Source: Selenomonadales bacterium
GTDB lineage: Bacteria > Bacillota > Negativicutes > RGIG982
NCBI GenBank assembly: GCA_017442105.1
Contig: JAFSAX010000134.1
Coordinates: forward strand, 1 to 45,400
Direction of reading: 5' to 3'
Length of the DNA stretch: 45,400 nucleotides
Both the position numbers and the translations under genes were made by a program. Below, piece by piece: positions 1 to 39,599 of the stretch; the first letter of the stretch is position 1; each line of letters begins with the position of its first letter. The notes beneath the pieces are model-generated. The model was given only the letters and a program-made list of their open reading frames with translations. It made no database searches and was not told where the DNA came from.

Positions 1-141
1 CGGGGATCCCATCTTTGTCGGTATCGACCATACAGCCTGCGATGAATGTCACGAAAGCGATCATTCCACCGCCGACCATTTCGGTGATAAGAGAAAGGAG
101 ATCGCGTAGTGCGACCTCTCCTTCTTTCCACAGCCACAGCC
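1..141. repeat. Terminal direct repeat, copy 1 (equals 45260-45400)
   Basis: Base-by-base identity read directly. The repeat lies inside a coding ORF, so it is most likely a circular-assembly overlap. Confidence 0.95.
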
Positions 142-4636: not shown

Positions 4637-7600
4637 CTACTTTATTTTTTTGTCAAATACGATCGCTTTCAGCACTTCGCCAATATCGTTGTCGAAATCG
4701 TTGTCCGCATATCGGATAAACGTCCAGATGCCATCCGTTATCGTATCGCTCCAGCCTGTGAACGAATTAGATGCCCTTGTCACTTCTCTGCCGACATCGA
4801 TCCAATCCTTTTTCTTGGACATGATCGCCTGCGATGCACGTTGTGCGCGATCGACCACATCGTATGCCGAGGTCATTTTTGCACCGTATACGCGCTCGCC
4901 CATGAACACACCAACCGTTACCTTGAAAAACTCTCTTGCGATTGGGATCATGCCGAACACCTGCTCGCCGAACGACTGCGCCATATGTGCAGGATCGAAT
5001 ACTTTTTTGATACGCTCCGACATATCTTCCTCATCGTCTCCCCACAGCGCACGAAGCACTTCTTCCATCGCCTTCGTAAGAATGAGCCAATACAGCACGC
5101 TTCGCGCAAATTTCATCCATTCTCCCGCGTTGACTGCCCTGCCGTAACGGAAGGCAAGCGCATTGAATACGGTGTTCATATACGAATAGAACATTGTGAG
5201 CTGTTTTGCGACTTCATGACTTCGCTGAACAGGCGCAAGGTCCTTGACATCACCGCTGCCGAATACGCGTCTGACCGCCGCATCGCCTGCCGCTACTGCT
5301 CTCCGCTCGATATTCTCCGCCGAGAGACCTTTTCCCACGCCTTCCCGATACACTCTTTCGTACTCGCTTTTCCAAAGCGGCGCAGCAAACATAAGATCGG
5401 TATATGCCATCAACGTAAAAGCATGCTCCTCCGCCCATTCGATTTTTTCTTTCGCTCCTCTGATCACCTTGCCTGCGAGATTCGGGAGCTTGCTTTCTCC
5501 TTCTCGTATCTCTCTCAGCTTCTCGCGCACATCTCGATCCATCGTCTCTGCTCGATGAGCAAGAAATTCCGATTTTTCCAGACAGAACTGATATTCCTTA
5601 ACAGGATCGGACGCAAAATTCCTCAGAGCGGCAAACGTTCTGCCTGCGCCGATATACTCGGTCACAGGCGCAATGTTCACCAGATTCAGCGCTGCAACAG
5701 TGACGCGCCAGCCCATGACAGCCATCGTCGCGTTTCTGCGAAGGAACGCCGCAACCTTGGTGATCTTATCCTTCTTCTCGTCCATCACCCAATTATCTTT
5801 CACCCACTTGTCCAGACTTCTGTGTGTCGATGTGCCGTACGCTTCTTCGATAGCCACTCTGACTTCCTGCGCATTGATGAGCTTGTAGACATCTCGGATC
5901 GCCTCACGATAACAGATGTTGTGGATCACATCGTCAAGTGCCTTTGGGAGAGGATCAAGCACCGTATAGATCGGTCGCTCGATCGTCTGCCGACTGCGCT
6001 GTTTTGTGAATCCTCGGCGCGTACCAAGCACGGCATTGCCGCTCATCTGCATTTTGGCGACATCGTCTTTCTCTAGGTCCTGCTGCCGTCCGCTTTTGGT
6101 CGGATCATACATGATTGGATAATAGCCGCCCGCAAGATGGTAGACAGTGCCGTCCTTGCCGACGATATCAAACGGCACTGCCTGCTGTTTCTCAATTCCT
6201 ACGCCTGTCATGCGCTCCTCAATAGCGACCGTATCGCCCCAGAACGATTCAAGCAGAGTCCACACGCCTGTGACCGTCTGCCAATCCTCCGCAGTAAGAT
6301 TGCCCAACACTTCTTCAATGTCTTTCTCTGTGAGATTGACAAACGCATCTTTATTTTGCTCGTCAGGTTTCTTGAATCCGTCCAAGACACGCTTACGGTT
6401 AAGCTCCGTCCCCCAGTTAAGAGCCAGCACGATAACCTGTTCCTTCGTCAGCACCGAGGTACCGAGCTTATACCGTTCTTCTTTGCGATGCTCTCTGTAT
6501 TTACCGAACAGCTCATGCACAGCCTTTGCCGCCTGCGCCTGCATGCGCATCTCCTTATTCGCCGCCCGATCGATCGGATCATACAGGAACATCATCGATA
6601 CGCCTTCCTTGCCGCCGTCGTTCCAACGGAATATCGTCTCAGGCTTGATAAGTTCTCCAACCGCCGCATCGCGTGCTGCAGTTATCTTTTCAAGTGTAGT
6701 CGGCAGTGTCATGCCCGTCGGATCATCGTTTGCTTTTGCCTTTACGTTCTTACGGACACCATCTGCGATACGTTGTACGGCATCTTCAAACGATACCGCC
6801 TTGCCGTCCTCATCGATGACCGTAAAGAGCCTGTTCGCATTTTGTCCGATGGTGTATACGCTCGTCAGAATGTCGAACAATCCGTCAAACTCATCCTTCG
6901 TCAATGCACCATAGCCGAGAGCCTTAACAGGGTTCTTCCTGCCTTCAATATTGACCTGCGTTTTGTAGACATCATTGCCGCCTGCCGCATCCTTGATAAA
7001 CTGCGGGATATCGACCTCGCCGTCCTCGTCAAGGAAGTGTGCTTCATATTCTTTGGCATACCGCTTGAACATCGCATCGACGCTCTCGCTCCCCTGCCAC
7101 TCCTGTGGCATGATGGCATCTCGGCGATTGACACCGAACACGTAGAGAAGATGGTTATAAAAATAGCGTTCATCAGCCGCCAATTTGACATTGCCTTTGG
7201 CGATACTGTTTGAACGCTTTTTCAATTTGTTCACTTTTTTATCTACATCTGCTTTCAGTTTTGCAGATTCGTCGGCGAAGTAGCTGAACATGACCTGCTC
7301 CCGCTTCGCTTGTTTCGCTTCTTGCCACTTACCCTTTGCCATCAGACGTGCGACCTCGACACCTTTCATGCGTTCCTTATGCCGCCATGAGTAAGTAGCT
7401 GTCGCCTGTCTGATCGGCATATACATCAGATTCATGAACGCAGCACGTTTGTACATATCCATCTGCCCTTCGACCGCATCACGTACCAGTCGGATACCTT
7501 CTTTTGACGATGTAATAAAGTCCCTAAGCTGTTTGACAGTATCAAGGATCTTCGCCTTGTCCTGCTCTGCCTTTTCCTTCGCCTTGCCTACCGCTTTCTC

Positions 7601-10600
7601 GACAGCTTCTTCCTTATCCTGTTTCGCTTCGACTTTCGCCGCCTGCTTCTGCATTTGATTGATGAGCTTCATCTCGGCTTCACGCCATCGGTAGGTGTAC
7701 TTGAGATCGGCAATTCGTTGTTTGAGCGACTTGACCTCTTTGCCTTCATCCTTCGGCTGTTCTTCTTCGCCGCGAAGAGATTTTTCGATCTCATCCAGAG
7801 CCTTGTCTACGCTCTTGTCAAGACGTCTTTCCTCTTTCTCTTTACGTTCCAGCGCTTCATATTCAAGCGTGAGGATCATCGCCTTATATTTTGAGGATGA
7901 TAGAGCCTTTTCCGCTTCTGCGTTTACAGTCGCTTCAACATCAGTATACGAATCCATATCTTCTACGGCTTGTGCCAGCTCTTTTTCAACCGCTTTTTCA
8001 AGACCGCCGCCGTGCATTTCAAGCTCTGCTTTATAGCTTTCTTCGGTATATCCAAGCGTAGGCAGGATATCCATACTTCCGGACAATCGTACACACTCTT
8101 CTGCACGGAAAATATCCTGTTCTTTTAACCGCTCCTCAATATCCTCGCGCATCGCCTTGATGATCTCCTGTCTGCCCGCTTCCATTTCGTCAGACACATC
8201 TTGCATCGCGATCTTTAACACCTTTTCTTTTGCTTCTTCCTTCGCTTCGCGTACCCATCGTTCGTACATCGCCTGCGTCGTATCGTCGAGTATCTGCATA
8301 CCCTTTTTCTTCGTAATAGATTCGATGCCCTGTACCTTTGCTTCGGCTTCTATCTCCTGCTCGCTTGCGAGCATACGTGCCATAACCGCCCGTACTTCCG
8401 CAGACGGTTTCCCGCCGAGCTGTACGAAATCGGCATAGATGTCGCACAGCCACTTTTTAAACGTGCGGAATACTGCTCTAAGACCGCGTACAGGTGCTTC
8501 GCCTGTGCGTAAGTACGCTTCGAATCCTCGAGCAAACTTCTCATGCTGTTCCCTTGTGAATCCTTGACTATCCTTATACCCAAGCCATTCTTTGACCGTC
8601 TGCCAATCTCTGACGAGCTGTGCAGGCGCACCATCCATCTCGGCAAGCATCTTAAGATCGGCAAGTGCTACATGCCCAAGCTCATGTACGAAGGTCGATT
8701 TGTCTGCCGATTCAAACAAGCTCACAACACGAGACATACCGCTGATGCGCGTCTGACCGCGGACGGATTGATTGTACCGCTCGATAACAGAGATAGCCTT
8801 ATCGTCGAATACAACAAAGCATCTTCCGTCAAGATAACCTTCGTAGGTGATTCCTTTGACACCATATTCGTTGAGCTTACGCGATGCTTCTTCAAGAGAA
8901 CCATATTCTTTTACCAACTTGGAGTAGATGGCATGTCCCGTATCGTTGGCGTTGAAGATGTTATACTTATACTCCTTCTCGTAAATCGAATCTGCAATTT
9001 CGTCCAACTCTTTGCCTAGATCACTACCTTTTCGCACATGCCTATGTGTGGAAAAATCAACCCAATCACCAAAAAGAGAACCTTTTACATATTTGTATGT
9101 CTTACCTTTATAGTCGACAAACTTGCCTGTTGTTGTGCGCTTGCCAATCTCTTTTAAGGCATTTATAACTTTTGGAGGTTGCTCTTTAAGTGGTTTCTGT
9201 TCGTCAAGCAGAACATCATTTTCGGGGATATCGACCTCATACAATTCCCCCGGGGTCTTTGCTTCGTTTTCTGTTTTTTCAATACCCTTCGAAGCAAAGT
9301 TTTCCTCCAGATAATCAGCCGCCTCATCAAGTCGTACATCGTTCCATTTGGACGCAGCTTGTTTTAGGCTGAGTATGGTCGCGGCGACGTTGCCATTTTC
9401 GTTGCTCAGGTAATTCAATGCTCTTTCCAAAACATCAGACGCTCTGTTTCCTTCGGCATCTCGCCATTCGCCCCGCACTGCTTTGTACCCAAGATAAATA
9501 CTTTCTTTTACTTCCCCTGCTAATCTGCGGCGGTATTCTTCTGATACCTTCTTGTCCTGTGCGAAGTACAGCCCCCATCCATGCGCCTGTGCTCCTTCGC
9601 CTGTGCCGATCGCGCCCAAGTCGAAGGTATCAAAGGTATGCGGCGTGCCGTGATACGCGGTCTGATAATATGTAGGCATTCCCTTTTTTCGCTTGCGTAA
9701 ATCGTTTTCATTTGGTATATTAGTAGTAGATAAACTACTGATTTTGTTGAGGACGTAGGGCGGTTTGAGCCTTGCCTCCCTTAACCAATCAGTAGTTTTT
9801 TTCTTGTTTATATACCGAATTTTATTGGTATTAAGGAAATTGTCTATAAACCATTTGTAATCTGTTTGTTTAACTGCATTGGCTGTGCCGTAAGCACTGT
9901 CTTTCCCATAGGATGATAAAATAAAGTTTGCGTTATTGCCTGTGCTGTCTCTTTTTTCTAATAAAAAAGTCACAATACTGACATCGTTTTTGTCGCCCAA
10001 ATCCAACGCTACTAAAATATTCCCGTTAGATTCAGCAACAAATAGAGGATCAGTAAGAGCCCTCGGGATTTTTTTTAGCTCTTCCTTTCCTATACTGTCT
10101 TTGTGTTTCACAAGAATATGCTCAAAAGTTTTATTCTTTATTTTTATCGGTAAGTGTGCAACGCCTGCTATTTCCAAAGCTAACGGAGTATGCATCACAT
10201 AGCTTTCTCCACGCTTCGGAAGTTTTGTCCAAGTATCTACCGTTTTTGCAAAATCAGCTTCATCTTTCTTCAATTTTGCTTCAGCAATATCTTGTCCATA
10301 CGCGCCTTCTTCCACTTCCGTCGCATCTGCCACGATAGAGGTACGTTCACGCATATAATCCTCGGCTGTATACGGTTTGCCTGTTATCTTGCTGATATTG
10401 TCTGCCATACGGTCTGCATATCTGGCGAACAGGATGGCATTCATTCTGCCTGCCTTCTGTACATCTGCATTGCCGCGTTCAAACTGCTTGCGTGCCGCTT
10501 GATATACCTTGTAGCCGCTCGGTGTAAGACCGCGCACTACTGCCATCTCGCTCGCTGTGAGGTTTTCTACCTTGCCTTTGATATCATTGAGAATATCAAG

Positions 10601-12988
10601 ATTCGCAAAGTCCTGATCGAGTGCATCGAAGTCCTCCTGCATCTCGTCTGTTGCTTCAAAGGTATATTCGGGCATCTGGTAGCGTTCGCCGCCGCCCTTG
10701 TATATCTCGCGTGCCATCTCCCACAGCTCGGCTTTGTTCGGCTTACGTTTATGCTGTTTATAAAAGTCGCTATACCACTCGTCATTATCGCTCATGCGTT
10801 TTGCAGGATGGCCTATCTCGTCAGAGTAGTACATATGTATGCCTCTGCTCATGCCTTCTTCCAGTTTCTTCACGATATTGCCGAGGCGCGCATTGATAGC
10901 TGTTTCTGTATCGTGCTTCATCTGTTTCCATGCCTGCATCGGATTGGACGGATTCGACAGGATGATAGCCGCGCCCATGTCCTGCTCTATGCCTGCTTCG
11001 GGGAAATTTGCCGTGATAATACCGTCTATCAGCTCTGCCTGCTTTTCTTCCTGCTCGATGCTGATGCTTTTTGCCATCTCCTCAGCAACAGCCATATAGT
11101 ATTTCTTACGTGCCGCGCTGTGTCCCTTTTCATCAAAAGAGATGTACCGATCGAACTTATCATTGTTCATTACCGTCTGCGCGTAGATTTCCGTAGGCAC
11201 GATGAGATCAGCCTTATTTTCGATGATGGCGTTGACTTCTTCTTGCTCAAGTCCCATTTCCTCAACAAGCTGATTGAACACTACCGCGCCTTCTTCGTCC
11301 TGCAGGGCAAGTTCCGTGTCGACGCGTACTTCCTTAAACTCCGTGTTCTCAACTGCACCTTTGACAGCCGCTTGATAGATCTCTGGATTTTTCTTGAACA
11401 ACTTCGATTCTGCCATATTCGCCTGCAGATTCTTTATCATGGCAAGACCGTTCGCACGCTTCATCTCTGCAAAGAAGATATCATTTTGCTCTTTCTGCAG
11501 ACGGGCAAAGTCGCTCACGCTTTTGAAATTCGACACCGTACCACCGATAACGCCAAGACCGATGATACCGGGAAGAGCTTCTGCCGACGCTTCCAGCGCA
11601 CCTTTGGCAAACTCTGTACCTGTATACTTACGGTATGCCGCCTGTGGTGCATACGTTACGATGGCATTATGTACCGCCTTATCGCTTGCATCCTGCACCG
11701 CTTCTTCTGCCGCTTCGGTCGCTCCTGCTTTTGCCGCCTGCAATACGCGCTCTCTGATGAATTGGGACATACCTGCTTTCAACATTGCTTGATCGCCCGA
11801 TGCCTTTGCCACGATTTCCATGATATCACGCTTGTAATTTGCACCGAGGAGATTCATGATCTGACCGTAATTCCAGAACTCCACGCCTGTTTCCATACCT
11901 GCCGCGATCGCCGCGAACGCACGTGCTTCATTCGGCGTCAAAAGGGTTTTGCCGTCTTTTGACTTCATCTCGCTGTACTCGGCATAATGTCTGCCTGCGC
12001 TGTTCATGAACATATCCTCTGCCATACCGTATCTGAATCCGATACCTGCCGTTGTGATAGCCGCACCCATAGCAGGAGCAGCAAGTGTACCACCCGACAT
12101 GACTGATACACCTACCCCTGTCGCAAGAGCCGTAGCCGCAAGGTTTGATCCTCTCTGTATCCCCTTGTTCATGTGGTAGAGATTAGCACCCGTACCGCCC
12201 GCGATTGCTACCCAAGGATCGTCAAGGAGATTCGGCATAGACTTCTGCTCGGGGATAGACTTCTTGATAGATGCGATCTCTTTTTTCATCTCATCTGTCA
12301 GCTCACCGCCTGCAAAACCAAACACGCCAAGCTCACCGATGCGGTAATTCGCCTTGTCCATCGCATACCCAAGGCTAAACGCCTCTGTTGCCGACTTTGC
12401 TTTCGTCAAGTCCTCGATATTGTGCATGGCGATAGCAACATCGGTATCGCTCATATTCGGATTCTCAACGACTTCTTTCAGCCCGGGGAACTTCGCATAC
12501 ACAGCATCCATATCGTCCCAATCGTTGATACCCTCGGGCGCAAGTGCCATACGCTTCTTCGTATACTCCTGCACACTTCTGCCCTTCGCCATGTTCTCGT
12601 CACTGTACAACAGTGCATTGACAGGGATACCTGTTTCAATACTGATGACCTGTGCCTCACGCTTCTTTTCTTCATCCGTCGCCAAATATTTTCTATACGC
12701 ATTACTGCCTTTCAGATAAGCGGCTGTATCCGATGCAGTTTCAACGATCGTAGACACCGCGCCTGTAAATGGTGCCACAGCACTTACAACATTCTCCGAT
12801 ACATCCGCACTTACCACACCTGTCATCGCACCGCCCGCCAAGTCAAGCATAGACAGATTGTCTGTGCTGTACTCATACTTCGGTTTCACAGGAGCAGGAG
12901 AGGATTGCTGTGCCTTGCGAATGCGTTCTGCACGCTGTTCGTCAACGAGCTTCAATCGCCGTTGCCACCGCTCAATATCGTTTGCCAT
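4637..12988 (-). CDS. Giant (2,783 aa) multi-domain internal virion / ejection protein of the polyvalent type
   Basis: Uninterrupted ORF in the T7 gp16 position after the other core proteins. Gly/Ala-rich hydrophobic N-terminus, an HILVKH nuclease-like module, a YHGTPH...GWGLYFA module, HELGH, an E/K coiled coil, and a roughly 900-aa C-terminal region. Confidence 0.85.
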   Translation of the reverse strand: MANDIERWQRRLKLVDEQRAERIRKAQQSSPAPVKPKYEYSTDNLSMLDLAGGAMTGVVSADVSENVVSAVAPFTGAVSTIVETASDTAAYLKGSNAYRKYLATDEEKKREAQVISIETGIPVNALLYSDENMAKGRSVQEYTKKRMALAPEGINDWDDMDAVYAKFPGLKEVVENPNMSDTDVAIAMHNIEDLTKAKSATEAFSLGYAMDKANYRIGELGVFGFAGGELTDEMKKEIASIKKSIPEQKSMPNLLDDPWVAIAGGTGANLYHMNKGIQRGSNLAATALATGVGVSVMSGGTLAAPAMGAAITTAGIGFRYGMAEDMFMNSAGRHYAEYSEMKSKDGKTLLTPNEARAFAAIAAGMETGVEFWNYGQIMNLLGANYKRDIMEIVAKASGDQAMLKAGMSQFIRERVLQAAKAGATEAAEEAVQDASDKAVHNAIVTYAPQAAYRKYTGTEFAKGALEASAEALPGIIGLGVIGGTVSNFKSVSDFARLQKEQNDIFFAEMKRANGLAMIKNLQANMAESKLFKKNPEIYQAAVKGAVENTEFKEVRVDTELALQDEEGAVVFNQLVEEMGLEQEEVNAIIENKADLIVPTEIYAQTVMNNDKFDRYISFDEKGHSAARKKYYMAVAEEMAKSISIEQEEKQAELIDGIITANFPEAGIEQDMGAAIILSNPSNPMQAWKQMKHDTETAINARLGNIVKKLEEGMSRGIHMYYSDEIGHPAKRMSDNDEWYSDFYKQHKRKPNKAELWEMAREIYKGGGERYQMPEYTFEATDEMQEDFDALDQDFANLDILNDIKGKVENLTASEMAVVRGLTPSGYKVYQAARKQFERGNADVQKAGRMNAILFARYADRMADNISKITGKPYTAEDYMRERTSIVADATEVEEGAYGQDIAEAKLKKDEADFAKTVDTWTKLPKRGESYVMHTPLALEIAGVAHLPIKIKNKTFEHILVKHKDSIGKEELKKIPRALTDPLFVAESNGNILVALDLGDKNDVSIVTFLLEKRDSTGNNANFILSSYGKDSAYGTANAVKQTDYKWFIDNFLNTNKIRYINKKKTTDWLREARLKPPYVLNKISSLSTTNIPNENDLRKRKKGMPTYYQTAYHGTPHTFDTFDLGAIGTGEGAQAHGWGLYFAQDKKVSEEYRRRLAGEVKESIYLGYKAVRGEWRDAEGNRASDVLERALNYLSNENGNVAATILSLKQAASKWNDVRLDEAADYLEENFASKGIEKTENEAKTPGELYEVDIPENDVLLDEQKPLKEQPPKVINALKEIGKRTTTGKFVDYKGKTYKYVKGSLFGDWVDFSTHRHVRKGSDLGKELDEIADSIYEKEYKYNIFNANDTGHAIYSKLVKEYGSLEEASRKLNEYGVKGITYEGYLDGRCFVVFDDKAISVIERYNQSVRGQTRISGMSRVVSLFESADKSTFVHELGHVALADLKMLAEMDGAPAQLVRDWQTVKEWLGYKDSQGFTREQHEKFARGFEAYLRTGEAPVRGLRAVFRTFKKWLCDIYADFVQLGGKPSAEVRAVMARMLASEQEIEAEAKVQGIESITKKKGMQILDDTTQAMYERWVREAKEEAKEKVLKIAMQDVSDEMEAGRQEIIKAMREDIEERLKEQDIFRAEECVRLSGSMDILPTLGYTEESYKAELEMHGGGLEKAVEKELAQAVEDMDSYTDVEATVNAEAEKALSSSKYKAMILTLEYEALERKEKEERRLDKSVDKALDEIEKSLRGEEEQPKDEGKEVKSLKQRIADLKYTYRWREAEMKLINQMQKQAAKVEAKQDKEEAVEKAVGKAKEKAEQDKAKILDTVKQLRDFITSSKEGIRLVRDAVEGQMDMYKRAAFMNLMYMPIRQATATYSWRHKERMKGVEVARLMAKGKWQEAKQAKREQVMFSYFADESAKLKADVDKKVNKLKKRSNSIAKGNVKLAADERYFYNHLLYVFGVNRRDAIMPQEWQGSESVDAMFKRYAKEYEAHFLDEDGEVDIPQFIKDAAGGNDVYKTQVNIEGRKNPVKALGYGALTKDEFDGLFDILTSVYTIGQNANRLFTVIDEDGKAVSFEDAVQRIADGVRKNVKAKANDDPTGMTLPTTLEKITAARDAAVGELIKPETIFRWNDGGKEGVSMMFLYDPIDRAANKEMRMQAQAAKAVHELFGKYREHRKEERYKLGTSVLTKEQVIVLALNWGTELNRKRVLDGFKKPDEQNKDAFVNLTEKDIEEVLGNLTAEDWQTVTGVWTLLESFWGDTVAIEERMTGVGIEKQQAVPFDIVGKDGTVYHLAGGYYPIMYDPTKSGRQQDLEKDDVAKMQMSGNAVLGTRRGFTKQRSRQTIERPIYTVLDPLPKALDDVIHNICYREAIRDVYKLINAQEVRVAIEEAYGTSTHRSLDKWVKDNWVMDEKKDKITKVAAFLRRNATMAVMGWRVTVAALNLVNIAPVTEYIGAGRTFAALRNFASDPVKEYQFCLEKSEFLAHRAETMDRDVREKLREIREGESKLPNLAGKVIRGAKEKIEWAEEHAFTLMAYTDLMFAAPLWKSEYERVYREGVGKGLSAENIERRAVAAGDAAVRRVFGSGDVKDLAPVQRSHEVAKQLTMFYSYMNTVFNALAFRYGRAVNAGEWMKFARSVLYWLILTKAMEEVLRALWGDDEEDMSERIKKVFDPAHMAQSFGEQVFGMIPIAREFFKVTVGVFMGERVYGAKMTSAYDVVDRAQRASQAIMSKKKDWIDVGREVTRASNSFTGWSDTITDGIWTFIRYADNDFDNDIGEVLKAIVFDKKIK

Positions 12989-15112
12989 TTACTCGTCCTC
13001 CTCGCCGTATCTGTCTGCCTGTTTGTAGAAGTCATCTTCATCCATTATCGCTGTTCTGCCATTCGGGTAAGTTACCGTAACAGTGCCGTCGCCGTTTTCT
13101 CTCGCGTTCGATATGCCCATCGCACGCATCGCCGCATTGCTGAGTCCCATCTGCTCATAATCAGCAAGATCGGAATTGCTTGCCCACCAACTATTCTGCG
13201 GTTTAACTGCCGCCTTGGTAAGTGCATCATATATCTGACTATAGCTCGGTGTTCCTCCGTTTTTCTCAACATAGTCCTGTATGAAATCCTGTGCCGCAGC
13301 CTTCGCACCGAGCCATAGACCGTTGTTATTGCCGTAATCACGCTGGAAATCTGCCTTCAGAGAGACCCAATCATATGTATCTTTCTGCATCTTGCGGTAA
13401 TATCCCACGAGAGACCGTCTGTCGGCAGGAGATACCCCTTCCGCATCCAGTGCATCGGTAAGCATATCTTCACTAAGAAATCTCCCCATATCAATAGCAT
13501 CTTTGAGCATTGCCATACCGTCCCTCGACACTTTGCCATAGCCGCCACTACCGCCACTGCCGCCCGTACCGCCCGATCCGCCGATATATCCTGCCATTCT
13601 TCTTTTTACTTGGCGATATACTTCAGGATCGTCGGCGTATCTTCTCGCAACCGCTTCAAACTGCCCCCGATCGGTAACACCCGACTGATGCAACTCCCAC
13701 ATCGCATCATCTGCGCTATCTACGCGCTGTCGGATACGCTCGTTCTCAATAGCTTTTTTTTGATTGCAGATGGCGATTACCCCGTTTCTTTGCTCCTGTT
13801 TTTCTTTGGCGGTAAGCGGTATCTTTTTTTTCGTTACACCGAGCGTACCATATCCGATTATCTTGCCTGCAAACGTGCTCATAGGCACAGAGCCGACACC
13901 CTTTGACGAGCCCGCCTGCGTGATATTGCCGTTTTCATCTACCATACCTACGTGCGTAACGTTTTTGTATGCCGTCTTATTTTTCGGATCGGTATTTACG
14001 ATAAATACAAGGTCGCCTGCTTGTGGCTTGTACGAGCCATCGTTTGCACGGAATCTGCCGTTTTCTTCCGCCCACTTGCACTGTGCATCTGCTACTCGTG
14101 GTATCTCTACGCCCATATGATGAGCAAGCTGTTGCGTATATGCAGAACAGTCGATACCGTTTTCGTCGTTGCCGCCCCATTTGTACCGAACGCCCTGCAT
14201 GCTGTCTTTGTATTCTTTTGCTTTGTAATAATTGCCGCCTTCTTCAATCTCTATCGTGTCATGGTTGGCAAGGATAGCATCGATCTTCGTTATATCATAA
14301 TTCGCTTCTTTGGCGATCTGTTCTTCCGCAGTCAACATTGCTTCATCCTTATCCGATTCCACAAGTCCTTTGCGCCATCGATTTAGCGTGCTTGGTGGTA
14401 CTCTATCACCGAAAACGTTTATCAAACTTCTTACCGCATCGTTATCGCCGTTTGAGTAAGCCGTTTCGACCACCGACGCTACCACTTTCGCTTCTGTTTC
14501 ATCAAACTTCGACTTACACCACTCTGCGCCGTATTCGTTCTCGCAATTCGCACGAATATCCGTATAGATCGCATCAAGCTGTTCTTTGACCGCAGACGGG
14601 TCTTTGTAGTAGTGCTGTGCGTTCTCCATCTTGAAATTGATCGAATTAGTAAGATTGACATCACGATATGCCTTTTTCTGTTCAAGACTGTAATTGCGGA
14701 CCGTATTGAAGTTTCGCTGTGAATCTTTGTCTGCCAGATTCGCAAACGCAATATGCGCTTTTTCATACTTCGGCAGCATCGGAAGAATGTCTGCTCTGAT
14801 CTTTTGCTCTTCTTCCTCAAACGTCTTGCCGATACCGCGCGCATTGGCAAGCTTCTTGTGCATCAGTCCGTTCTCTTCGTTATACAGAAGGTCGCTGATA
14901 CGCCTATCGTATTCATTTTTAGCCGCAGTAACGTCCGCTACCATATCTTCTTCACGCTCTTTCTCCACGAGCGAAAGAACCGTACCGAATCCTCTTGCCA
15001 TCGCATCGTAGCCGCTTCCGTCACCATAAGCAATGGCAGGCCCTGTCGATTGTCTTGCTGGCGTACTGCCGACCTTAAGCCCCACGTTGGACTGGTATCC
15101 TATTGCTTTCAT
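12989..15112 (-). CDS. Internal virion protein with an NlpC/P60 cell-wall endopeptidase domain
   Basis: 707 aa. VRYKWGGNDENGIDCSAYTQQ...THVGMV supplies the NlpC/P60 Cys and His. Also has a GGSGGTGGSGGSGG linker. Lies in the core-protein block. Confidence 0.8.
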   Translation of the reverse strand: MKAIGYQSNVGLKVGSTPARQSTGPAIAYGDGSGYDAMARGFGTVLSLVEKEREEDMVADVTAAKNEYDRRISDLLYNEENGLMHKKLANARGIGKTFEEEEQKIRADILPMLPKYEKAHIAFANLADKDSQRNFNTVRNYSLEQKKAYRDVNLTNSINFKMENAQHYYKDPSAVKEQLDAIYTDIRANCENEYGAEWCKSKFDETEAKVVASVVETAYSNGDNDAVRSLINVFGDRVPPSTLNRWRKGLVESDKDEAMLTAEEQIAKEANYDITKIDAILANHDTIEIEEGGNYYKAKEYKDSMQGVRYKWGGNDENGIDCSAYTQQLAHHMGVEIPRVADAQCKWAEENGRFRANDGSYKPQAGDLVFIVNTDPKNKTAYKNVTHVGMVDENGNITQAGSSKGVGSVPMSTFAGKIIGYGTLGVTKKKIPLTAKEKQEQRNGVIAICNQKKAIENERIRQRVDSADDAMWELHQSGVTDRGQFEAVARRYADDPEVYRQVKRRMAGYIGGSGGTGGSGGSGGYGKVSRDGMAMLKDAIDMGRFLSEDMLTDALDAEGVSPADRRSLVGYYRKMQKDTYDWVSLKADFQRDYGNNNGLWLGAKAAAQDFIQDYVEKNGGTPSYSQIYDALTKAAVKPQNSWWASNSDLADYEQMGLSNAAMRAMGISNARENGDGTVTVTYPNGRTAIMDEDDFYKQADRYGEEDE

Positions 15113-15116
15113 CTAC

Positions 15117-15755
15117 TCACCACCCGCTATAATTCGGCAAGCCGTACGCGCCCCAGCCGTACTTCTGCTTTTTGGGAGCTTTGAAATCGTACGTATCCGC
15201 CCAATCTCCACTTACCGTTCCGCTTGTCGCCACTTCTTTCGCTGTATCTGCCGTCTTGCCTGCATCGTACGCACCGTAGATAGAAGATGCCGCACCCAAG
15301 ATAGACCCGATCTGTTTCTGTCTGGACGCACGCTTGGCGTTTGCCGCCGCACTGTATGAATTAAGAGCCGACTGCATATAATTCGTTTCCTGCGCCCGCG
15401 ACGCTTCGTTATCGTATCGCTGATTCTGCAGGAGATTCATGCTGTCTTTCTTCCATGCTTCTTCTGACGAGGACATGATATCAAGACCGCTTCCCGTCAT
15501 CGTCATACCGCTTGCCCCTGCGCCTGCCGCGATCTGACCGTGAGCCAGTCTGCGCTTATCGTCAAGCATCATCTGATCCTGTGCATACTTGTCGGCGATA
15601 CGCTCCTGCTGCCTACGCTCCGCTTCTGCGTTCATCTCGGCATTGCGTGCCTGCGCCTTATACATTGCCTCCTGTGCATCTCCTTCGGCTTTTGCCCCCA
15701 TAAAATTAGAATACCCTTGGAGTGCCGCCAGACCTATTGTCAAACTGCACATCAC
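15117..15755 (-). CDS. Internal virion (core) protein, gp14-like position
   Basis: 212 aa. Hydrophobic N-terminus followed by a Q/A/N-rich coil. Position matches podovirus core proteins. Confidence 0.5.
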   Translation of the reverse strand: MMCSLTIGLAALQGYSNFMGAKAEGDAQEAMYKAQARNAEMNAEAERRQQERIADKYAQDQMMLDDKRRLAHGQIAAGAGASGMTMTGSGLDIMSSSEEAWKKDSMNLLQNQRYDNEASRAQETNYMQSALNSYSAAANAKRASRQKQIGSILGAASSIYGAYDAGKTADTAKEVATSGTVSGDWADTYDFKAPKKQKYGWGAYGLPNYSGW

Positions 15756-16225
15756 TTCTCACCTCCGATCGTGAACATCATAAACTTATCGCCCTTCTCG
15801 TTGATGGGACGCGGCTCATGAAACACTGCCCCCATTCGTTTCAGCCATGCAACGGCTTTCTTGTTTTTCACACTTACGAAGTTAAACAGCATCCCGTATT
15901 CCGCCGTCCACTCTTTCAATACTCTGCGCGATTCTCTCACAAACGACTTCTTGCACTCGTCAATACCATCCGTTCCAAGACACCAGATGATGCGGCCGCC
16001 CGCATACTCTTCTTTCGACACGCCGAAGATACAGACGGGCTTCTCTCTGTGCCCGAAAAACATTGTGATCTCCGAGCCGTCCATACCGTCTTTGATCGCC
16101 TGCTCTCTGTCTGTGTACCCGATCGCCTCAAGCTCAAACACATCCATCTTACGCATGTTCCGCGCAATATCTTTCACCATCTCATCGGCTCTTTCGTCTT
16201 CACAAAATACTACCCTAGCCACCAA
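15752..16225 (-). CDS. Small virion-assembly / internal protein (T7 gp13-like position, DUF2833-like C-terminus)
   Basis: 157 aa. The C-terminus LFNFVSVKNKKAVAWLKRMGAVF resembles the gp13/DUF2833 pattern. The TTG/GTG start is uncertain. Confidence 0.4.
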   Translation of the reverse strand: MVARVVFCEDERADEMVKDIARNMRKMDVFELEAIGYTDREQAIKDGMDGSEITMFFGHREKPVCIFGVSKEEYAGGRIIWCLGTDGIDECKKSFVRESRRVLKEWTAEYGMLFNFVSVKNKKAVAWLKRMGAVFHEPRPINEKGDKFMMFTIGGEK

Positions 16226-20667: not shown

Positions 20668-21282
20668 TTATTTATATTTGCTGAAGTCCGTCTTGTCATA
20701 CATCGTAGACGAACCGCCCGCCGTACCGTTATCCAATCTGGTGCCGTTCTCCTCACCGACCATATCGGCAAGCCTTGCCATCAGATTAAGGAACACAGGA
20801 TGATTGCCCGCCCCTGTATCGATCGCCATCTGCGTAAAGCCCGGGTGAAGCTTTTCTGCCCATTCCTTCGCAATGCCGATCTTTTGGAGCTTCGCATCAT
20901 AGTCCTTGCCCGCTTCTTCGCGGAACGTATTTGCCCAGCCTTTTTCACGCTCGATCTGTGCAGCGATGACACTGTCTGCCGCGTCTTGCTGAAGCTTAAG
21001 CCCGTATGCGGCAAGCTTATTCGCCTGTTCATTGCCGATGCCCGCCTCCTTGCACACAGCGATGAAACCGTCGCTTGCCTCTTGGCTCATCTCAAGGCCG
21101 AGAGAAGCGCACGTTTCACTGAAATCGTATGTATCGGCGGGTGGATTTGCACCACCAAAGATATTGTCTGCCGCAGGTGGTGTCGGCTCTGCGGGCGGGT
21201 CTGTCGGTGTATTTGTCGGTTGATTGGTAGGCTCTGCCGGTGTCGGGTCCGCAGGCGTATTTAAAGTATCACTCATATTCAT
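20668..21282 (-). CDS. Scaffolding protein (putative)
   Basis: 204 aa, acidic and helical with a Pro/Thr-rich N-terminus. Located between the portal and the capsid gene. Confidence 0.55.
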   Translation of the reverse strand: MNMSDTLNTPADPTPAEPTNQPTNTPTDPPAEPTPPAADNIFGGANPPADTYDFSETCASLGLEMSQEASDGFIAVCKEAGIGNEQANKLAAYGLKLQQDAADSVIAAQIEREKGWANTFREEAGKDYDAKLQKIGIAKEWAEKLHPGFTQMAIDTGAGNHPVFLNLMARLADMVGEENGTRLDNGTAGGSSTMYDKTDFSKYK

Positions 21283-28993: not shown

Positions 28994-29088
28994 CACTCGT
29001 CCTCCTTCCACACCGTATCTCGGTACAATCCCACCGCACCGACCAGAGCAATCCCGATCAGCGCGACAGCAATGATAATACACATCAT
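28993..29088 (-). CDS. 31-aa hydrophobic micro-protein
   Basis: Its ATG overlaps the methylase TGA, and its stop overlaps the next ATG. Sequence is MMCIIIAVALIGIALVGAVGLYRDTVWKEDE. Confidence 0.45.
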   Translation of the reverse strand: MMCIIIAVALIGIALVGAVGLYRDTVWKEDE

Positions 29089-29906
29089 GTCGTATTGCCC
29101 TCCTCGAACAAATTTATCTGTTTCTCTTCTTCCGTTTTCAGCATCTTCTCCATCGCTTCTCGGTAAAATCGCTTATCGACCTCGAAGCCGTATGCCTTTC
29201 TGCCCAGCTCATGCGCCGCTCGAAGCGTTGATCCGCTTCCTGCACAGGGATCGATCACAACGTCCCCGGGATCTGTAAATATCTCGATCAGCTTTTTCAA
29301 TACTCCGACAGGCTTCTGCGTCGGATGAATCTTTGGATATTCCTTCGCGCTATCTCTCGCCCACTCGATCCAGTTAAATATCATCTTTCCGCTCCCGCGT
29401 ATGATCTTGCCGTTCTCATCGTACTGCCTGCCGTTGTTAAATTTCGGCAACTTATCACGATACAACACCACTGCGAATTCTGTCGCTCCGACTATCTTCA
29501 TGTTTGCTTTCAGCACTTGTGCCGAGTAGTTTTTTATGAAAAAGAGAGGATAGTTCTTATCAAATCCGTACCGCTTGCCGTATTCAATGACCGTCTGTAT
29601 CTGCTCGAACGCGCAGAACACGATCATGGCAGGTGCTTGTCCTTTCTCTTTCGGTTCTTTTTTCAACAGGCGATTACAGAAGTGCATATATTCTGCGATC
29701 TTGAAGTTACCGTCTGTGTTAAAAAATGTCGCCTTTGCCAGCTTGCTTTCACCATTCTTATTGTCACCATCGTTGTACCACATCGGATTGCTTGCGTAAG
29801 CATCTACGCCGATGTTGTACGGTATATCCGCGATAACAAGCTGTGCTTTCGGAATATTGTACCGTTTGAAATTCTGGAAATTATCGTTGTACAGCTCCAT
29901 TTTCAT
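29085..29906 (-). CDS. Orphan DNA methyltransferase (N6-A/N4-C, beta class)
   Basis: VIADIPYN is a motif IV DPPY variant near the N-terminus. VIDPCAGSGSTLRAAHELGRKAYGFE is motif I near the C-terminus. No nuclease partner is present. Confidence 0.85.
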   Translation of the reverse strand: MKMELYNDNFQNFKRYNIPKAQLVIADIPYNIGVDAYASNPMWYNDGDNKNGESKLAKATFFNTDGNFKIAEYMHFCNRLLKKEPKEKGQAPAMIVFCAFEQIQTVIEYGKRYGFDKNYPLFFIKNYSAQVLKANMKIVGATEFAVVLYRDKLPKFNNGRQYDENGKIIRGSGKMIFNWIEWARDSAKEYPKIHPTQKPVGVLKKLIEIFTDPGDVVIDPCAGSGSTLRAAHELGRKAYGFEVDKRFYREAMEKMLKTEEEKQINLFEEGNTT

Positions 29907-35520: not shown

Positions 35521-36159
35521 CTATTCCTCCGCTTCTATCGGCTGACCGTCTTTCAATTTATAGAACGTGTCAGCTTTGATTTTTTCTCCGTCCACCTTGA
35601 AGCACTGTACATCAACCAGATGCCAGTTATATTTCTCATCCTGCTTCTGCTCACCGAGAATGATCCAACAACCAAGTGCGCCTTTCGCTTTTGAATCATA
35701 TCCAATTGCCATTGCTACGCTTTCTTTGCCTGAAACACTAGCCGCCGACCAATAGCCTGTGTTGGTAGCCGCCGACCAATAGCCTGTGTTGGTAGCCGCC
35801 GACCAATCGCCTTCCTGCTTTTCTTCTTTGTCCGCATCAATATGCGATTTGACATATTCGATAGTTGCTTTTACGATACCGGGAATCCCGATCTCTGCAC
35901 CGATCGTCAGTTTGCTTACGCACACCTTCGTATCATTCTGCCCGCTGTTGTCCGCACATCCTTCGCCGACTACTTCCGTATATCTGCTGTCGGCAGGTGG
36001 ATAATAGTCGAATACATCAAGTGGATACTCGCAGAAGTGGAATCCGCTCTCACACGTTACCGCCTTGCCTTCATGCTCATATGTCTTGCCTACTTCGTAC
36101 TGGAATCCCCTGCATTGAAGATTCTTGTCATAGCCCTTGAACCCGTGAACCTTGCTCAT
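35521..36159 (-). CDS. Conserved-looking phage protein with an internal tandem peptide repeat
   Basis: 212 aa. N-terminus GFKGYDKNLQCRGFQYEVGKTYE...GFHFCEYPLDVFDYY. Central repeat is (W)SAATNTGY x2.6. Confidence 0.6.
   Translation of the reverse strand: MSKVHGFKGYDKNLQCRGFQYEVGKTYEHEGKAVTCESGFHFCEYPLDVFDYYPPADSRYTEVVGEGCADNSGQNDTKVCVSKLTIGAEIGIPGIVKATIEYVKSHIDADKEEKQEGDWSAATNTGYWSAATNTGYWSAASVSGKESVAMAIGYDSKAKGALGCWIILGEQKQDEKYNWHLVDVQCFKVDGEKIKADTFYKLKDGQPIEAEE
35739..35807. repeat. 27-bp tandem repeat x2.6 (coding)
   Basis: tagccgccgaccaatagcctgtgttgg at 35739-35765 and 35766-35792, with a partial copy to 35807. Confidence 0.95.
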
Positions 36160-36898: not shown

Positions 36899-37109
36899 TC
36901 ACACCTCCAAAAAATATCTCCCACGTTTCATCTCGCGTAAGCGGAATATGCTCCATCATTGCCTGTACTTCTCTCACGCGGAACGAACCGCCATCTTCAA
37001 GCCTGCGTGTAAACGTATCTCTGTTTATGCCGATTGCTTGGGCAACTTCGTAATACGTTTTGCTATGATACTTCAACTTTGCTTTCAGCAGCCGGATATC
37101 AACTGCCAT
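36852..37109 (-). CDS. HTH regulatory protein (XRE/DUF739-like)
   Basis: LLKAKLKYHSKTYYEVAQAIGINRDTFTRRLEDGGSFRVREVQAMMEHI. Confidence 0.6.
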   Translation of the reverse strand: MAVDIRLLKAKLKYHSKTYYEVAQAIGINRDTFTRRLEDGGSFRVREVQAMMEHIPLTRDETWEIFFGGVNDGFERAASCVCSCS

Positions 37110-37159
37110 GTTGCACCTCCTCTGCTCCCATGAAAGGAGCTTTTTGATTTGCCTCGATA

Positions 37160-37176
37160 AAACACGTTACGTGTTA
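37160..37176. promoter_or_regulatory. Operator-like palindrome O3
   Basis: AAACACG-TTA-CGTGTTA. The stop codon of the Cro-like gene sits in the centre. Confidence 0.5.
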
Positions 37177-37370
37177 TCGTTTGGTAAAAAAATAAGTTTT
37201 TCTTGCGGAACACCGTACAAGACTACCATTTTCTTTACCGTGTCAAGAGTAGGAGAAGTTTCTCCCATTTCGTAATTCCACAAGGTTTTTCTTGTGATCC
37301 CTAGTAGTTTCGCGGCTTCTTCCATGTTAAACCCTTTGTTTACTCTCGCCGCCCTAGCTGTAATTTTCAA
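37167..37370 (-). CDS. Cro-like XRE-family HTH protein (67 aa)
   Basis: TTG start at 37370 with a GGAGG RBS 6 nt upstream. NMEEAAKLLGITRKTLWNYEMGETSP is the HTH. The longer track ORF would cover the promoter. Confidence 0.7.
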   Translation of the reverse strand: MKITARAARVNKGFNMEEAAKLLGITRKTLWNYEMGETSPTLDTVKKMVVLYGVPQEKLIFLPNDNT

Positions 37371-37389
37371 AGGATACCTCCTTTCCGAG

Positions 37390-37406
37390 AAACACGAAAC
37401 GTGTTT
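37390..37406. promoter_or_regulatory. Operator palindrome O1
   Basis: AAACACG-AAA-CGTGTTT, lying between the leftward -10 and the cro RBS. Confidence 0.6.
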
Positions 37407-37419
37407 TTCATCTATCCAT

Positions 37420-37448
37420 AGAATACACCATAAAACCACCATTGTCAA
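37420..37448 (-). promoter_or_regulatory. Leftward early promoter (PR-like)
   Basis: Minus strand: TTGACA (37443-37448), a 17-nt spacer, then TATTCT (37420-37425). Confidence 0.65.
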
Positions 37449-37461
37449 CACTTTTTGTGTT
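37447..37461. promoter_or_regulatory. Operator palindrome O2, overlapping the leftward -35
   Basis: AACAC-TTTTT-GTGTT. Confidence 0.5.
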
Positions 37462-37478
37462 TTATTTTTTTGAGTTTG

Positions 37479-37507
37479 TTTACTTCTTTTCTCAAATGGT
37501 GTAAAAT
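37479..37507 (+). promoter_or_regulatory. Rightward repressor promoter (PRM-like)
   Basis: TTTACT, a 17-nt spacer, then TAAAAT. A GAGGTG RBS and the ATG at 37531 follow. Confidence 0.45.
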
Positions 37508-37530
37508 GCAAGTAAAGCGAGGTGTGATTG

Positions 37531-38106
37531 ATGCGCGTAGAAATAGACAAGAAAGTTGTTGGGAAAAACCTCACAAAACTAGTTAAAAACAGCGGAAAAA
37601 GCAGAAAAGAAATCTGTGCTGCAACTGGCATCGGCTACTCCACTTTTACCGAATGGATAAACGGTAGGAAGTACCCTCGTCCAGAAGGCATAGAGATATT
37701 AGCTAAATACTTCGGTGTGTCTAAAGCAGACCTTATCGAAGAACAGACCGCCGCTCCTGTTCTCCTCTCCCCTGCCGAGATTGGCAACACCATACGCGCT
37801 CAGCGAGAAGAAAAGGGACTCACATACGAACAGCTTGCCGAACAAACGGGCACTACAGTAGCTGTCATCAAGAAATGGGAGAAAGGCAAGATTGCCGAAC
37901 CTCGCATAGACATGGCATCAAACCTTGCACGTGCACTCGACCTGCCGACCTCTGCCCTCTTCGGTGTGCAAGAGAACGAAACGAACATACGCAGACAGAG
38001 ATTCCGAACCATGCTATACGAAGAACTCCCTGACCTGTGCTTGACCGATGACGAGATAAGACAAGTCATCAACTATATCAAGTTTGTTATATCGCAGAGA
38101 AAATAG
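37531..38106 (+). CDS. CI-like repressor with two XRE HTH domains and no S24 peptidase domain
   Basis: Two HTH units (GKSRKEICAATGIGYSTFTEW and KGLTYEQLAEQTGTTVAVIKKWEKG). Divergent from the Cro-like gene. Confidence 0.8.
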   Translation: MRVEIDKKVVGKNLTKLVKNSGKSRKEICAATGIGYSTFTEWINGRKYPRPEGIEILAKYFGVSKADLIEEQTAAPVLLSPAEIGNTIRAQREEKGLTYEQLAEQTGTTVAVIKKWEKGKIAEPRIDMASNLARALDLPTSALFGVQENETNIRRQRFRTMLYEELPDLCLTDDEIRQVINYIKFVISQRK

Positions 38107-38121
38107 AAAGAAGTTGATTGT

Positions 38122-38958
38122 ATGAAACATAAGATAACCTCATTACAGATAGCACAGCTATTCTTAATAGGATTTTTACTTATAATAACCACAGACCGAT
38201 TTTCCTCGGGTGTATATACTCTACTTAGAATACTGGCAACAATCATCTCGGTATGGTCTGCAATAAAAACAGATAACAACATCCTTAAACTTATCTTCGC
38301 ATTTATAGCGATACTATTTAACCCGATTATTCTCATCAAACTGGATAGAGATGAATGGCAGCTTATCAACCTAATTGTAGCTCTGTTCTATGCAGGAAAC
38401 ATTTTGTATCCTATCATCTCCAAATACAGAAAAACTCCAAAGATACCTTCAACGCCGCAAAGTGTTGTTAAAAGCGACATTGTTTGCAAAGCTCTTCAAC
38501 CCACTCAAGAAGTCAATGTAAGAACCACTCCAACAGAAGAAACTAAAACTCCTTCTACGGACATTCAGCCGAAACCACAGGAACATATAACTATTGGACA
38601 GCGCTTCTCAAAATTATTTCAAGGGCGCTTGGGTCGATTGACTTTCGCAATTCGCTTTATTTTTACGTTCATAGGAGCTATGTGTTGTGGTATCATCTAT
38701 AGCTCTATTTTCTCTACATACGTAAACCCCGATATGTTTTTTGTAGCCGTCTTTTGCCTTTTGGTTTTGTTGGCATTAATAGTTTATTGGTTTTCCATTG
38801 TCATTAGGAGATTACATGACATCAACGCTTCTGGTTTCTACTCAATTCCACTTATGGTAGTACAATCTTTGGGGATTATCGGTTTTGTAGGGATAATAGT
38901 ACTTGCTTGTTTCCCCGGTACAAAAGGGAGAAACAAATACGGAGAACAACCTAAATAA
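38122..38958 (+). CDS. Polytopic membrane protein: N-terminal multi-TM domain, P/T/Q linker, C-terminal DUF805-like domain
   Basis: GRLGRLTFAIRFIF...VIRRLHDINASGFY...PGTKGRNKYGEQP is a DUF805 hallmark. The gene is AT-rich and lies in the repressor operon. Confidence 0.7.
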   Translation: MKHKITSLQIAQLFLIGFLLIITTDRFSSGVYTLLRILATIISVWSAIKTDNNILKLIFAFIAILFNPIILIKLDRDEWQLINLIVALFYAGNILYPIISKYRKTPKIPSTPQSVVKSDIVCKALQPTQEVNVRTTPTEETKTPSTDIQPKPQEHITIGQRFSKLFQGRLGRLTFAIRFIFTFIGAMCCGIIYSSIFSTYVNPDMFFVAVFCLLVLLALIVYWFSIVIRRLHDINASGFYSIPLMVVQSLGIIGFVGIIVLACFPGTKGRNKYGEQPK

Positions 38959-39593: not shown

Positions 39594-39599
39594 CACAAC

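Follow-up and report, generated by a model that had tools for sequence, protein, structure and literature searches.

A 2,783-residue polyvalent protein in the gp16 position of a Selenomonadales podovirus: a probable Bbp10-type ejection protein with exchangeable cargo domains

We analyzed a 45,400-nucleotide (nt) contig from a Selenomonadales bacterium (JAFSAX010000134.1, positions 1 to 45,400 of the forward strand, GenBank assembly GCA_017442105.1), hereafter called the window, with a focus on the giant minus-strand open reading frame (ORF) at 4637-12988. Overall, the results make it likely that this gene belongs to a temperate podovirus of the BPP-1/epsilon15 type, which infects a diderm Firmicute (Selenomonadales), and codes for its largest internal virion (ejection) protein, that it is the equivalent, by position and architecture, of Bbp10 from Bordetella phage BPP-1 and of gp16 from phage T7 (IVP-D, short for internal virion protein D), and that it is a polyvalent protein with exchangeable cargo. 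The core of this reading, a polyvalent virion or ejection protein with enzyme-like modules in the gp16 slot, had been proposed in an initial annotation made from the sequence alone, and it is supported by synteny and by homology to Bbp10. When recomputed, the ORF starts with ATG and codes for 2,783 amino acids (aa), a product identical to the protein IJN28_05165 from an NCBI metagenome-assembled genome of a Selenomonadales bacterium. Opposite-strand ORFs within the gene, for example the 590-aa ORF at 10190-11962 on the plus strand, were considered and rejected as shadow ORFs, as strand composition skew and the existence of full-length homologues both favour the minus strand. Recomputation also returned exactly the motif coordinates given by the initial annotation.

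The two ends of the contig carry a 141-nt exact direct repeat (window positions 1-141 and 45260-45400), and the window therefore represents a complete phage genome of 45,259 bp that was either assembled as a circle or is terminally redundant. The giant ORF makes up 18.5% of this genome, in line with an earlier estimate of about 18%. Reading along the minus strand, PHROG and Pfam matches identify small and large terminase genes, a portal gene, a Bbp19-like protein, a scaffold/protease-like ORF and an epsilon15-type GP7 major capsid protein, followed by tubular tail protein A, tubular tail protein B (nozzle), a T7 Gp13-family protein, a T7 gp14-family protein, a 707-aa NlpC/P60 protein, the giant ORF and the tail-fibre genes. 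The order gp13-gp14-gp15-gp16-fibre is thus present downstream of the tail tube genes, and these neighbour matches bear out the assignment of the giant ORF to the gp16 position. The same gene order is found in BPP-1 and in a relative of the giant protein (P0010), and the layout is that of the epsilon15/BPP-1 group of podoviruses. A tyrosine integrase gene is located at 39629-40807 on the plus strand; BPP-1 is a temperate phage as well.

With the gene as query, megablast found no DNA-level match among 50,697 phage records, and therefore the phage has no close cultured relative. At the protein level, tblastn matched aa ~1395-2700 to a single large protein per record in 53 phage records, which include Bordetella phages BPP-1, BIP-1 and BMP-1 (Bbp10), Caulobacter phages Jess A and SR18, Pseudomonas phage AF, Xanthomonas phage CP2, Vibrio phages and cyanophages. 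This Bbp10 group, which also includes a protein of Pseudomonas phage UFJF_PfDIW6, shares the slot of the giant gene, after a muralytic internal protein and before the tail fibre. Specifically, the 2,052-aa Bbp10 of BPP-1 (NP_958679, annotated as a 'crystallin beta/gamma motif-containing protein') is flanked directly by Bbp11, a transglycosylase protein, and by the fibre Bbp9, and is described in the BPP-1 record as 'part of the structural protein cassette'. Searching a large protein database produced 82 further homologues of 1,600-4,500 aa, mostly from 40-46-kb contigs, with a varying set of polyvalent Pfam domains (ART-PolyVal, MuF_C, LPD3, LPD22, LPD23, PBECR1/3/5, RadC, zeta toxin and Kinase-PolyVal). 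An NCBIfam scan returned noise only. For the epsilon15 subgroup, Hardies et al. 2016 (PMC4819975, Table 2) give Bbp10 as the homologue of T7 IVP-D, and they also describe internal virion proteins as hosts of cytoplasm-directed domains; a literature search on Bbp10 turned up a single passing mention among otherwise irrelevant papers.

The likeness to Bbp10 extends to the N-terminus, which is of LPD22 type, to cargo located just upstream of an HExxH domain, to a charged region of helical character and to the C-terminal scaffold, which is homologous in the two proteins. However, there are several differences. Bbp10 has a single PBECR1 cargo, whereas the longer protein studied here has a MuF-C domain and an insert-bearing ART domain; identity in the shared part is only ~27-28%; the N-terminal LPD22 of the giant protein is too divergent for the Pfam model, unlike that of Bbp10; and the host is a Negativicute instead of a proteobacterium. 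The initial annotation had regarded the fusion of such modules to a podovirus ejection protein in a temperate phage as noteworthy. This is not new, given that Pfam detects LPD22 and PBECR1 in BPP-1 Bbp10, and given Hardies et al. 2016 and gp47 of phage phi24B (see below).

High-scoring segment pairs (HSPs) from BLAST comparisons with the homologues break at aa ~899, ~1107 and ~1405, and these breakpoints divide the protein in three, with a variable cargo cassette (aa 900-1407) placed between a conserved N-module (aa 1-899) and a conserved C-module (aa 1408-2783). Conservation of the C-module spans the whole homologue set and reaches as far as BPP-1. In contrast, the cassette is replaced in the ten closest relatives (P0002-P0011), whose conserved flanks are 48-90% identical to those of the giant protein. 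For example, the cargo is PBECR1 in P0010, LPD3 plus a canonical ART in P0007, LPD23, a HEIQH zincin-like segment and LPD3 in P0009, and PBECR5, ART and LPD23 in P0011. Sliding-window comparisons show blocks of 96-100% identity to one relative beside blocks of 10-25%. Specifically, amino acid identity to P0002 is 96-100% at aa 51-150, 351-850, 1401-1600 and 1901-2050, and identity to P0004 reaches 98% solely at aa 1151-1250. This sharp mosaic, seen in comparisons with P0002, P0004 and P0007, indicates that intragenic recombination has probably occurred recently among co-circulating phages. A separate observation concerns P0008 and P0009, where the first ~17 ART residues (NQTAYHGSPHKFDTFD) are kept and an unrelated domain then follows; in P0010 that same domain directly follows the N-module. 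The truncated ART start in P0008 and P0009 looks like a recombination scar.

Within the N-module, an hhalign comparison of aa 88-320 with the LPD22-bearing N-termini of BPP-1-like proteins gave a probability of 94.7% and an E value of 6e-8, and the Pfam LPD22 model itself found no match on the giant protein. Together, this N-terminal homology and that of the C-module indicate that the whole protein is collinear with Bbp10. Pfam LPD22, which is common in the homologues, was at first guessed to be the HExxH domain, a guess that was ruled out as LPD22 is N-terminal in Bbp10 and in the homologue P0026. Note that NCBI and UniRef give P0026, a 2,058-aa protein from a 40.5-kb contig, the label 'Brugia timori'; almost certainly, the nematode assembly includes DNA of a phage or bacterium here. 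The N-module also contains the region that the initial annotation had described as Gly/Ala-rich and hydrophobic (aa 255-325). Here 36 of 71 residues are Gly, Ala, Ser or Thr, eight [GAS]xxx[GAS]xxx[GAS] motifs are present, and aa 280-318 form the longest uncharged run of the protein (39 aa). The Gly/Ala-rich character thus stands, but the hydrophobicity is merely moderate, with a maximum Kyte-Doolittle value of 1.26 over 19 residues. A membrane-active role for this segment is possible.

The C-module contains, beyond its HExxH domain, a charged linker and a large helical scaffold. The E/K-rich composition noted earlier for the linker is confirmed at aa 1540-1830, where E plus K make up a fraction of 0.22-0.36 per 100 aa, 59% of the residues are E, K, D, R, Q or A, and only two prolines occur; this composition is consistent with a coiled coil. 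For the scaffold, PHROG 9880 (function unknown) matches aa 1883-2725 with an E value of 9e-150. An AlphaFold2 (AF2) model of aa 1840-2783 is nearly all helix, with a predicted local distance difference test score (pLDDT) of 79 and a predicted template modelling score (pTM) of 0.75, so that the protein is large and predominantly alpha-helical as IVP-D proteins are; the full-length homologue alignment used for structure prediction held 46 sequences, reduced to 32. At E<=1e-3, Foldseek with this model had 116 matches in BFVD (best 1e-36, query TM-score up to 0.72), to C-terminal fragments of giant proteins from viruses with annotations that include crystallin beta/gamma (the Bbp10 label), LPD-containing, MuF-C, PolyVal ART and nuclease proteins. 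The C-module is therefore a common carrier scaffold of this class.

Table 1. Features of the giant gene and of its upstream neighbours, with window coordinates.
Feature	Coordinates	Strand	Evidence
Whole gene: Bbp10-type (IVP-D position) polyvalent internal virion protein, 2,783 aa	4637..12988	-	ORF check; tblastn vs BPP-1 Bbp10, E 5e-49
Conserved N-module, aa 1-899, with divergent LPD22-like region (aa ~88-215) and helical segments	10292..12988	-	48-90% identity to P0002-P0011 (closest ten relatives); similarity ends at aa ~899-913
Gly/Ala/Ser/Thr-rich, nearly uncharged segment, aa 255-325, with small-xxx-small repeats	12014..12226	-	Composition
Junction 1, Y897-G-Q899, N-module end/cassette start	10292..10300	-	HSPs to P0006, P0007, P0009 and P0019 stop exactly at aa 899
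MuF-C/PBECR (BECR-fold RNase-like) domain, aa 961-1066; conserved block ~aa 930-1100 including HILVKH	9791..10108	-	Pfam PF18819
Junction 2, Y1107-Y-Q1109, MuF-C/ART border	9662..9670	-	HSP starts at aa 1106-1109 in many homologues
ART-PolyVal-type domain, aa 1110-1404; inserts at ~aa 1145-1245 and ~1270-1375 split the core strands	8777..9661	-	Pfam PF18760, hhalign
Junction 3, Y1405-N-Q1407, cassette end/C-module start	8768..8776	-	HSP starts at aa 1399-1408 in P0007-P0011 and P0019
Conserved HExxH(+E) domain, aa 1408-1548, containing HELGH; predicted metallohydrolase, no catalogued family	8345..8767	-	Conservation, AF2
Strongly charged, E/K-rich helical linker (putative coiled coil), aa 1549-1839	7472..8344	-	Composition; conserved in relatives
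Conserved, mostly alpha-helical C-terminal scaffold, aa 1840-2783	4640..7471	-	PHROG 9880, AF2, Foldseek BFVD
Upstream neighbour: 707-aa internal virion protein with NlpC/P60 peptidoglycan hydrolase domain, gp15/Bbp11 position	12989..15112	-	Pfam NLPC_P60 3.4e-14; PHROG endolysin and tail matches
T7 gp14-family and Gp13-family internal virion protein genes	15117..16225	-	Pfam T7_gp14 4.9e-12; Phage_T7_Gp13 1.8e-7

The first cargo domain had been likened by the initial annotation to the phage Barnase-EndoU-ColicinE5/D-RelE-like (PBECR) nucleases, and a profile search agrees. Against a cut-off of 27.6 bits, Pfam MuF_C (PF18819) reaches 35.9 bits when the whole protein is scanned and 39.2 bits when the segment is, with PBECR2 as an additional weak match; MuF-C is one of the PBECR RNase families of Iyer et al. 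2017 (PMC5512222). The motif HILVKH occurs once, at aa 957-962 (nt 10103-10120). The three relatives that also have the MuF-C module (P0013, P0020 and P0021) conserve H957 and H962 of this motif, along with D982-P983 and Y1016. In this set of four sequences, H957 (and also H962) provides the conserved His of the PBECR N-terminal helix, its placement in a helix being putative, and the strand-4 Ser/Thr position is occupied by S1014/S1015 in the giant protein, by S in P0013 and by N/A in P0020 and P0021.

For the second cargo domain, Pfam ART-PolyVal (PF18760) is borderline: it scores 26.2 bits on the whole protein, 32.1 bits on a 316-aa segment and 30.5 bits on a 443-aa segment, relative to a cut-off of 31.2. 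The corresponding segments of ART-bearing homologues match this model in 16 of 16 cases, six of them also matching DUF3990 and one PARP, both below threshold. An hhalign comparison of 21 variant members with 14 canonical ART-PolyVal domains, both sets drawn from the homologues, aligned the whole domain (query columns 4-259 of 263, template columns 25-164 of 175) with a probability of 94% and an E value of 1.4e-7. The motifs that had marked this module each occur once, YHGTPHTFDTFD at aa 1112-1123 (nt 9620-9655), GAQAHGWGLYFA at aa 1132-1143 and GITYEGYLDGRCFVVFDD at aa 1379-1396 (nt 8801-8854). H1113 and Y1141, conserved in 21 of 21 members, lie in predicted strands (pLDDT ~80-89), and the ART core strands have a pLDDT of 87-97 in an AF2 model of aa 1106-1548 whose overall pLDDT is 77. 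Thus, the homology part of the earlier ART assignment holds, and aa 1110-1404 likely belong to the ART-PolyVal superfamily as judged from these alignments. What is not retained is the canonical Asp, in whose place stands K1378; D1395, which is conserved in 19 of 21 members just past the last strand, is a possible substitute.

Directly downstream of the cassette lies the HExxH domain, with HELGH as a single occurrence at aa 1435-1439 (nt 8672-8686). Twelve residues are invariant in 49 homologues (H1435, E1436, H1439, E1483, A1486, E1490, G1496, P1499, F1507, F1510, Y1518 and R1538), and this set includes both the HExxH residues and two downstream Glu candidates for a further ligand, E1483 and E1490. 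This is the conservation pattern of a gluzincin-like metal site, with a predicted third ligand 44 or 51 residues downstream. AF2 predicts aa 1408-1548 to be helical with a pLDDT of 80-94. Among 26 members the Pfam matches are sub-threshold (DUF4344 at 0.0054 in three members, Peptidase_M3 at 0.014 and Peptidase_Mx at 0.12), and a profile of the ART and HExxH domains had no match among PDB sequences. A scan of 1.84 billion cluster representatives with the HExxH domain gave 9,059 matches at E<=1e-3 and 5,837 at E<=1e-10, mostly in proteins of 2,000-3,000 aa with the domain in mid-protein. The domain is therefore abundant and uncatalogued. The zincin proposed for this site by the initial annotation stands as a motif, and no profile or fold match to a known zincin accompanies it, so 'zincin' applies at the level of the motif only.

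The three boundaries of the cassette all carry a short motif ending in Gln (Table 1). The protein contains [YF][NGYF]Q at five places, where 1.3 would be expected; the two that lie outside the cassette boundaries are conserved core positions of the N-module. The relatives have this φ-x-Q motif at their own domain boundaries too, in the form L/F/Y-x-Q with S, G or A mostly as the next residue. Of 58 distinct homologues, 53 have it immediately upstream of the HExxH domain, as compared to 32% of random windows, a difference whose p-value overstates independence since the sequences are related. The motif could be a cleavage site, a docking strand, a conserved domain edge or a recombination landmark. 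A bolder proposal combines it with the neighbouring domain: the HExxH(+Glu) domain would be a new family of cis-acting processing peptidases in Bbp10-type ejection proteins, φ-x-Q would be its cleavage site, and the protein would be a self-unpacking polyprotein that frees interchangeable effectors after ejection. We regard this proposal as doubtful.

Several results weigh against the reading of the giant protein as a cargo-bearing ejection protein. Regarding the scaffold, Foldseek of the C-module against the PDB reached a best E value of only 1.3 and found neither T7 gp16 nor a chain of the cyanophage A4 pre-ejectosome; a full-family profile against PDB sequences gave low-complexity noise and no ejection-protein chain; and phmmer of the whole protein against PDB sequences found no match. 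As these searches reveal no direct sequence or fold similarity to T7 gp16, the IVP-D link rests on synteny and on the published HMM-HMM chain via Bbp10. Regarding the enzyme-like modules, the HExxH domain of the protein has no Pfam match, and Foldseek of the aa 1106-1548 model against the PDB found no peptidase or zincin and nothing below an E value of 0.7, with the ART toxin TreX (9gco_B) ranked 22nd at 2.8. The large inserts probably defeat a Foldseek search for the ART fold. Furthermore, the canonical GYDG Asp (present in 12 of 14 canonical domains) aligns with K1378, itself a variable position, and the activity of this MuF-C copy is not a given, as MuF-C of phage Mu itself is considered inactive (Iyer et al. 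2017, PMC5512222).

These same module results are what recommends a first alternative, that of an ejection or core protein with a structural function alone, whose enzyme modules are degenerate passengers that serve in binding or scaffolding without catalysis. In addition to the missing Asp, the failed Foldseek searches for ART and zincin folds and the inactive Mu homologue, the Pfam ART match is limited to model positions 9-62 of 140 (its N-terminal part) and the PBECR Ser/Thr is not clearly conserved. However, residues of catalytic type are conserved: H1113, Y1141 and D1395 in the ART variants, H957 and H962 in the MuF-C relatives, and the HExxH residues with E1483 and E1490 across 49 diverse homologues. 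Fast exchange of the cassette is moreover a signature of arms-race effectors and not of scaffolding. We therefore consider a structural-only role unlikely.

T7 gp16 carries a muralytic domain, which favours a second alternative in which the HExxH domain, and with it the protein, acts on peptidoglycan peptides or envelope proteins at penetration with no processing of cargo. Records of phages from Caulobacter, Nostoc, Microcystis and Octadecabacter give homologues the name 'lysis protein' or 'lysin', and the authors of the phi24B study propose peptidoglycan degradation by the metallopeptidase domain of their protein (bioRxiv 10.64898/2026.04.10.717836). Yet no experimental support was found behind the 'lysin' record annotations, and the giant ORF has no muralytic Pfam or PHROG match, including none to the lytic transglycosylase of T7 gp16. 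The peptidoglycan hydrolase (NlpC/P60, PHROG endolysin) is instead located in the separate 707-aa upstream protein, as is also true of Bbp11 in BPP-1. An envelope-directed role is thus very unlikely.

Returning to the cargo-bearing ejection protein, we propose the following sequence of events. In the virion, a few copies would be packaged on the portal as part of the capsid core, to be ejected upon infection. Their conserved modules would help to build or extend a trans-envelope conduit, possibly by means of the uncharged Gly/Ala-rich segment and the helical scaffold, and the cargo would enter the cytoplasm with the DNA, ahead of gene expression. The BECR-fold domain would act there as an RNase and the ART-like domain as an ADP-ribosyltransferase of host targets, such that defence is blunted or the host is taken over. 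The HExxH domain, as a putative metallohydrolase, may free the cargo by cutting the φ-x-Q junctions. Packaging and ejection are suggested here by the T7 and BPP-1 literature and by Iyer et al., with phi24B gp47 as a precedent for packaging. That the protein is instead a non-virion late cytoplasmic polyprotein or toxin (for example in superinfection exclusion or inter-phage conflict) that merely resides in the structural operon is hardly credible: polyvalent domains do occur in non-virion contexts such as conjugative elements, but the position between gp14/gp15-like genes and fibres is strictly conserved across distant phages, the start of the gene abuts the stop of the upstream gene, the BPP-1 record places Bbp10 in the structural protein cassette, and the analogous phi24B gp47 is abundant in virions.

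Comparison with known systems places the protein at the meeting point of two described classes. Like the polyvalent proteins of phages and conjugative elements (Iyer et al. 2017, PMC5512222), for which packaging and injection are predicted, it joins several unrelated effector-type or LPD domains in one giant polypeptide (MuF_C/PBECR and ART-PolyVal by Pfam, and an LPD22-like N-terminus by hhalign), it is encoded among the virion genes of a structural operon in a complete 45.3-kb podovirus genome, and the architecture of its orthologues is highly mosaic. It differs from them in that their prevalent processing peptidase, MPTase-PolyVal, is absent and its place is taken by an uncatalogued HExxH domain whose position is fixed. 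When Iyer et al. 2017 (PMC5512222) was searched by terms, no mention of the junction motif was found, and BPP-1, gp16 and ejection proteins are likewise unmentioned in the searched text. Like the T7 gp16/IVP-D family (Hardies et al. 2016, PMC4819975), which includes the N4 gp50 virion RNA polymerase and the Pseudomonas phage H66 gp60 methylase, it is the largest, mostly alpha-helical internal virion protein, is encoded downstream of gp13, gp14 and gp15 analogues and fits the principle by which IVP-D homologues bear cytoplasm-destined domains. It differs from T7 gp16 in lacking both demonstrated direct similarity and an N-terminal lytic transglycosylase, and from N4 gp50 and H66 gp60 in having RNase-like and ART-like cargo in place of a polymerase or methylase. 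Finally, gp47 of the Stx phage phi24B, a 2,811-aa polyvalent protein that was found in virions by proteomics and proposed to be an ejection protein in 2026 (bioRxiv 10.64898/2026.04.10.717836), shares with the giant protein a size of ~2,800 aa, a MuF-C domain and a temperate podovirus as its source. It differs in its LPD5, LPD1 and LPD38 domains and in belonging to a GP4-like, T=9 capsid/tail lineage.

Additional observations were made elsewhere in the window. The gp15-slot protein upstream of the giant gene has an NlpC/P60 endopeptidase domain where a transglycosylase is annotated for Bbp11 of BPP-1, which amounts to another muralytic solution in the same slot. A 204-aa ORF at 20671-21282 (PHROG 'protease') was considered as a processing enzyme, and no Pfam match was found in it. 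A DNA methyltransferase gene at 29085-29906 (PHROG 67, E 4e-53), situated in the early/replication region, is a candidate for a second, non-injected anti-restriction function. At 35739-35819, a 27-nt unit is present three times in tandem, with two copies exact and the third 74% identical, inside a minus-strand ORF at 35521-36159 that matches PHROG 4433 (unknown function). Lastly, the GC content falls to 0.38-0.40 at ~37000-40000, as compared to ~0.49 elsewhere, in an island that contains plus-strand ORFs, adjoins the integrase gene and includes a membrane-protein moron candidate at 38122-38958. This island is probably the lysogeny/moron region.

The concept that emerges is already published, in the polyvalent class (Iyer 2017), in the cytoplasmic cargo of IVP-D proteins (Hardies 2016) and in a virion-borne polyvalent ejection protein of 2.8 kaa (phi24B, 2026), and since all three are in the literature our analysis adds little conceptually. 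Three parts alone go beyond the descriptions that we found: the ART variant with its inserts, the HExxH domain that is absent from catalogues, and the motif at the junctions. What the giant gene offers is a clean and complete case in which the largest ejection protein of a podovirus probably serves as a chassis for exchangeable injected effectors, with a diderm Firmicute of gut or rumen type as its host. A useful by-product is an HExxH domain that has no Pfam entry and is present in thousands of giant phage proteins. The φ-x-Q junction, for its part, provides a testable hypothesis of how polyvalent proteins may be cut into working parts, as well as practical cloning boundaries for the cargo modules.

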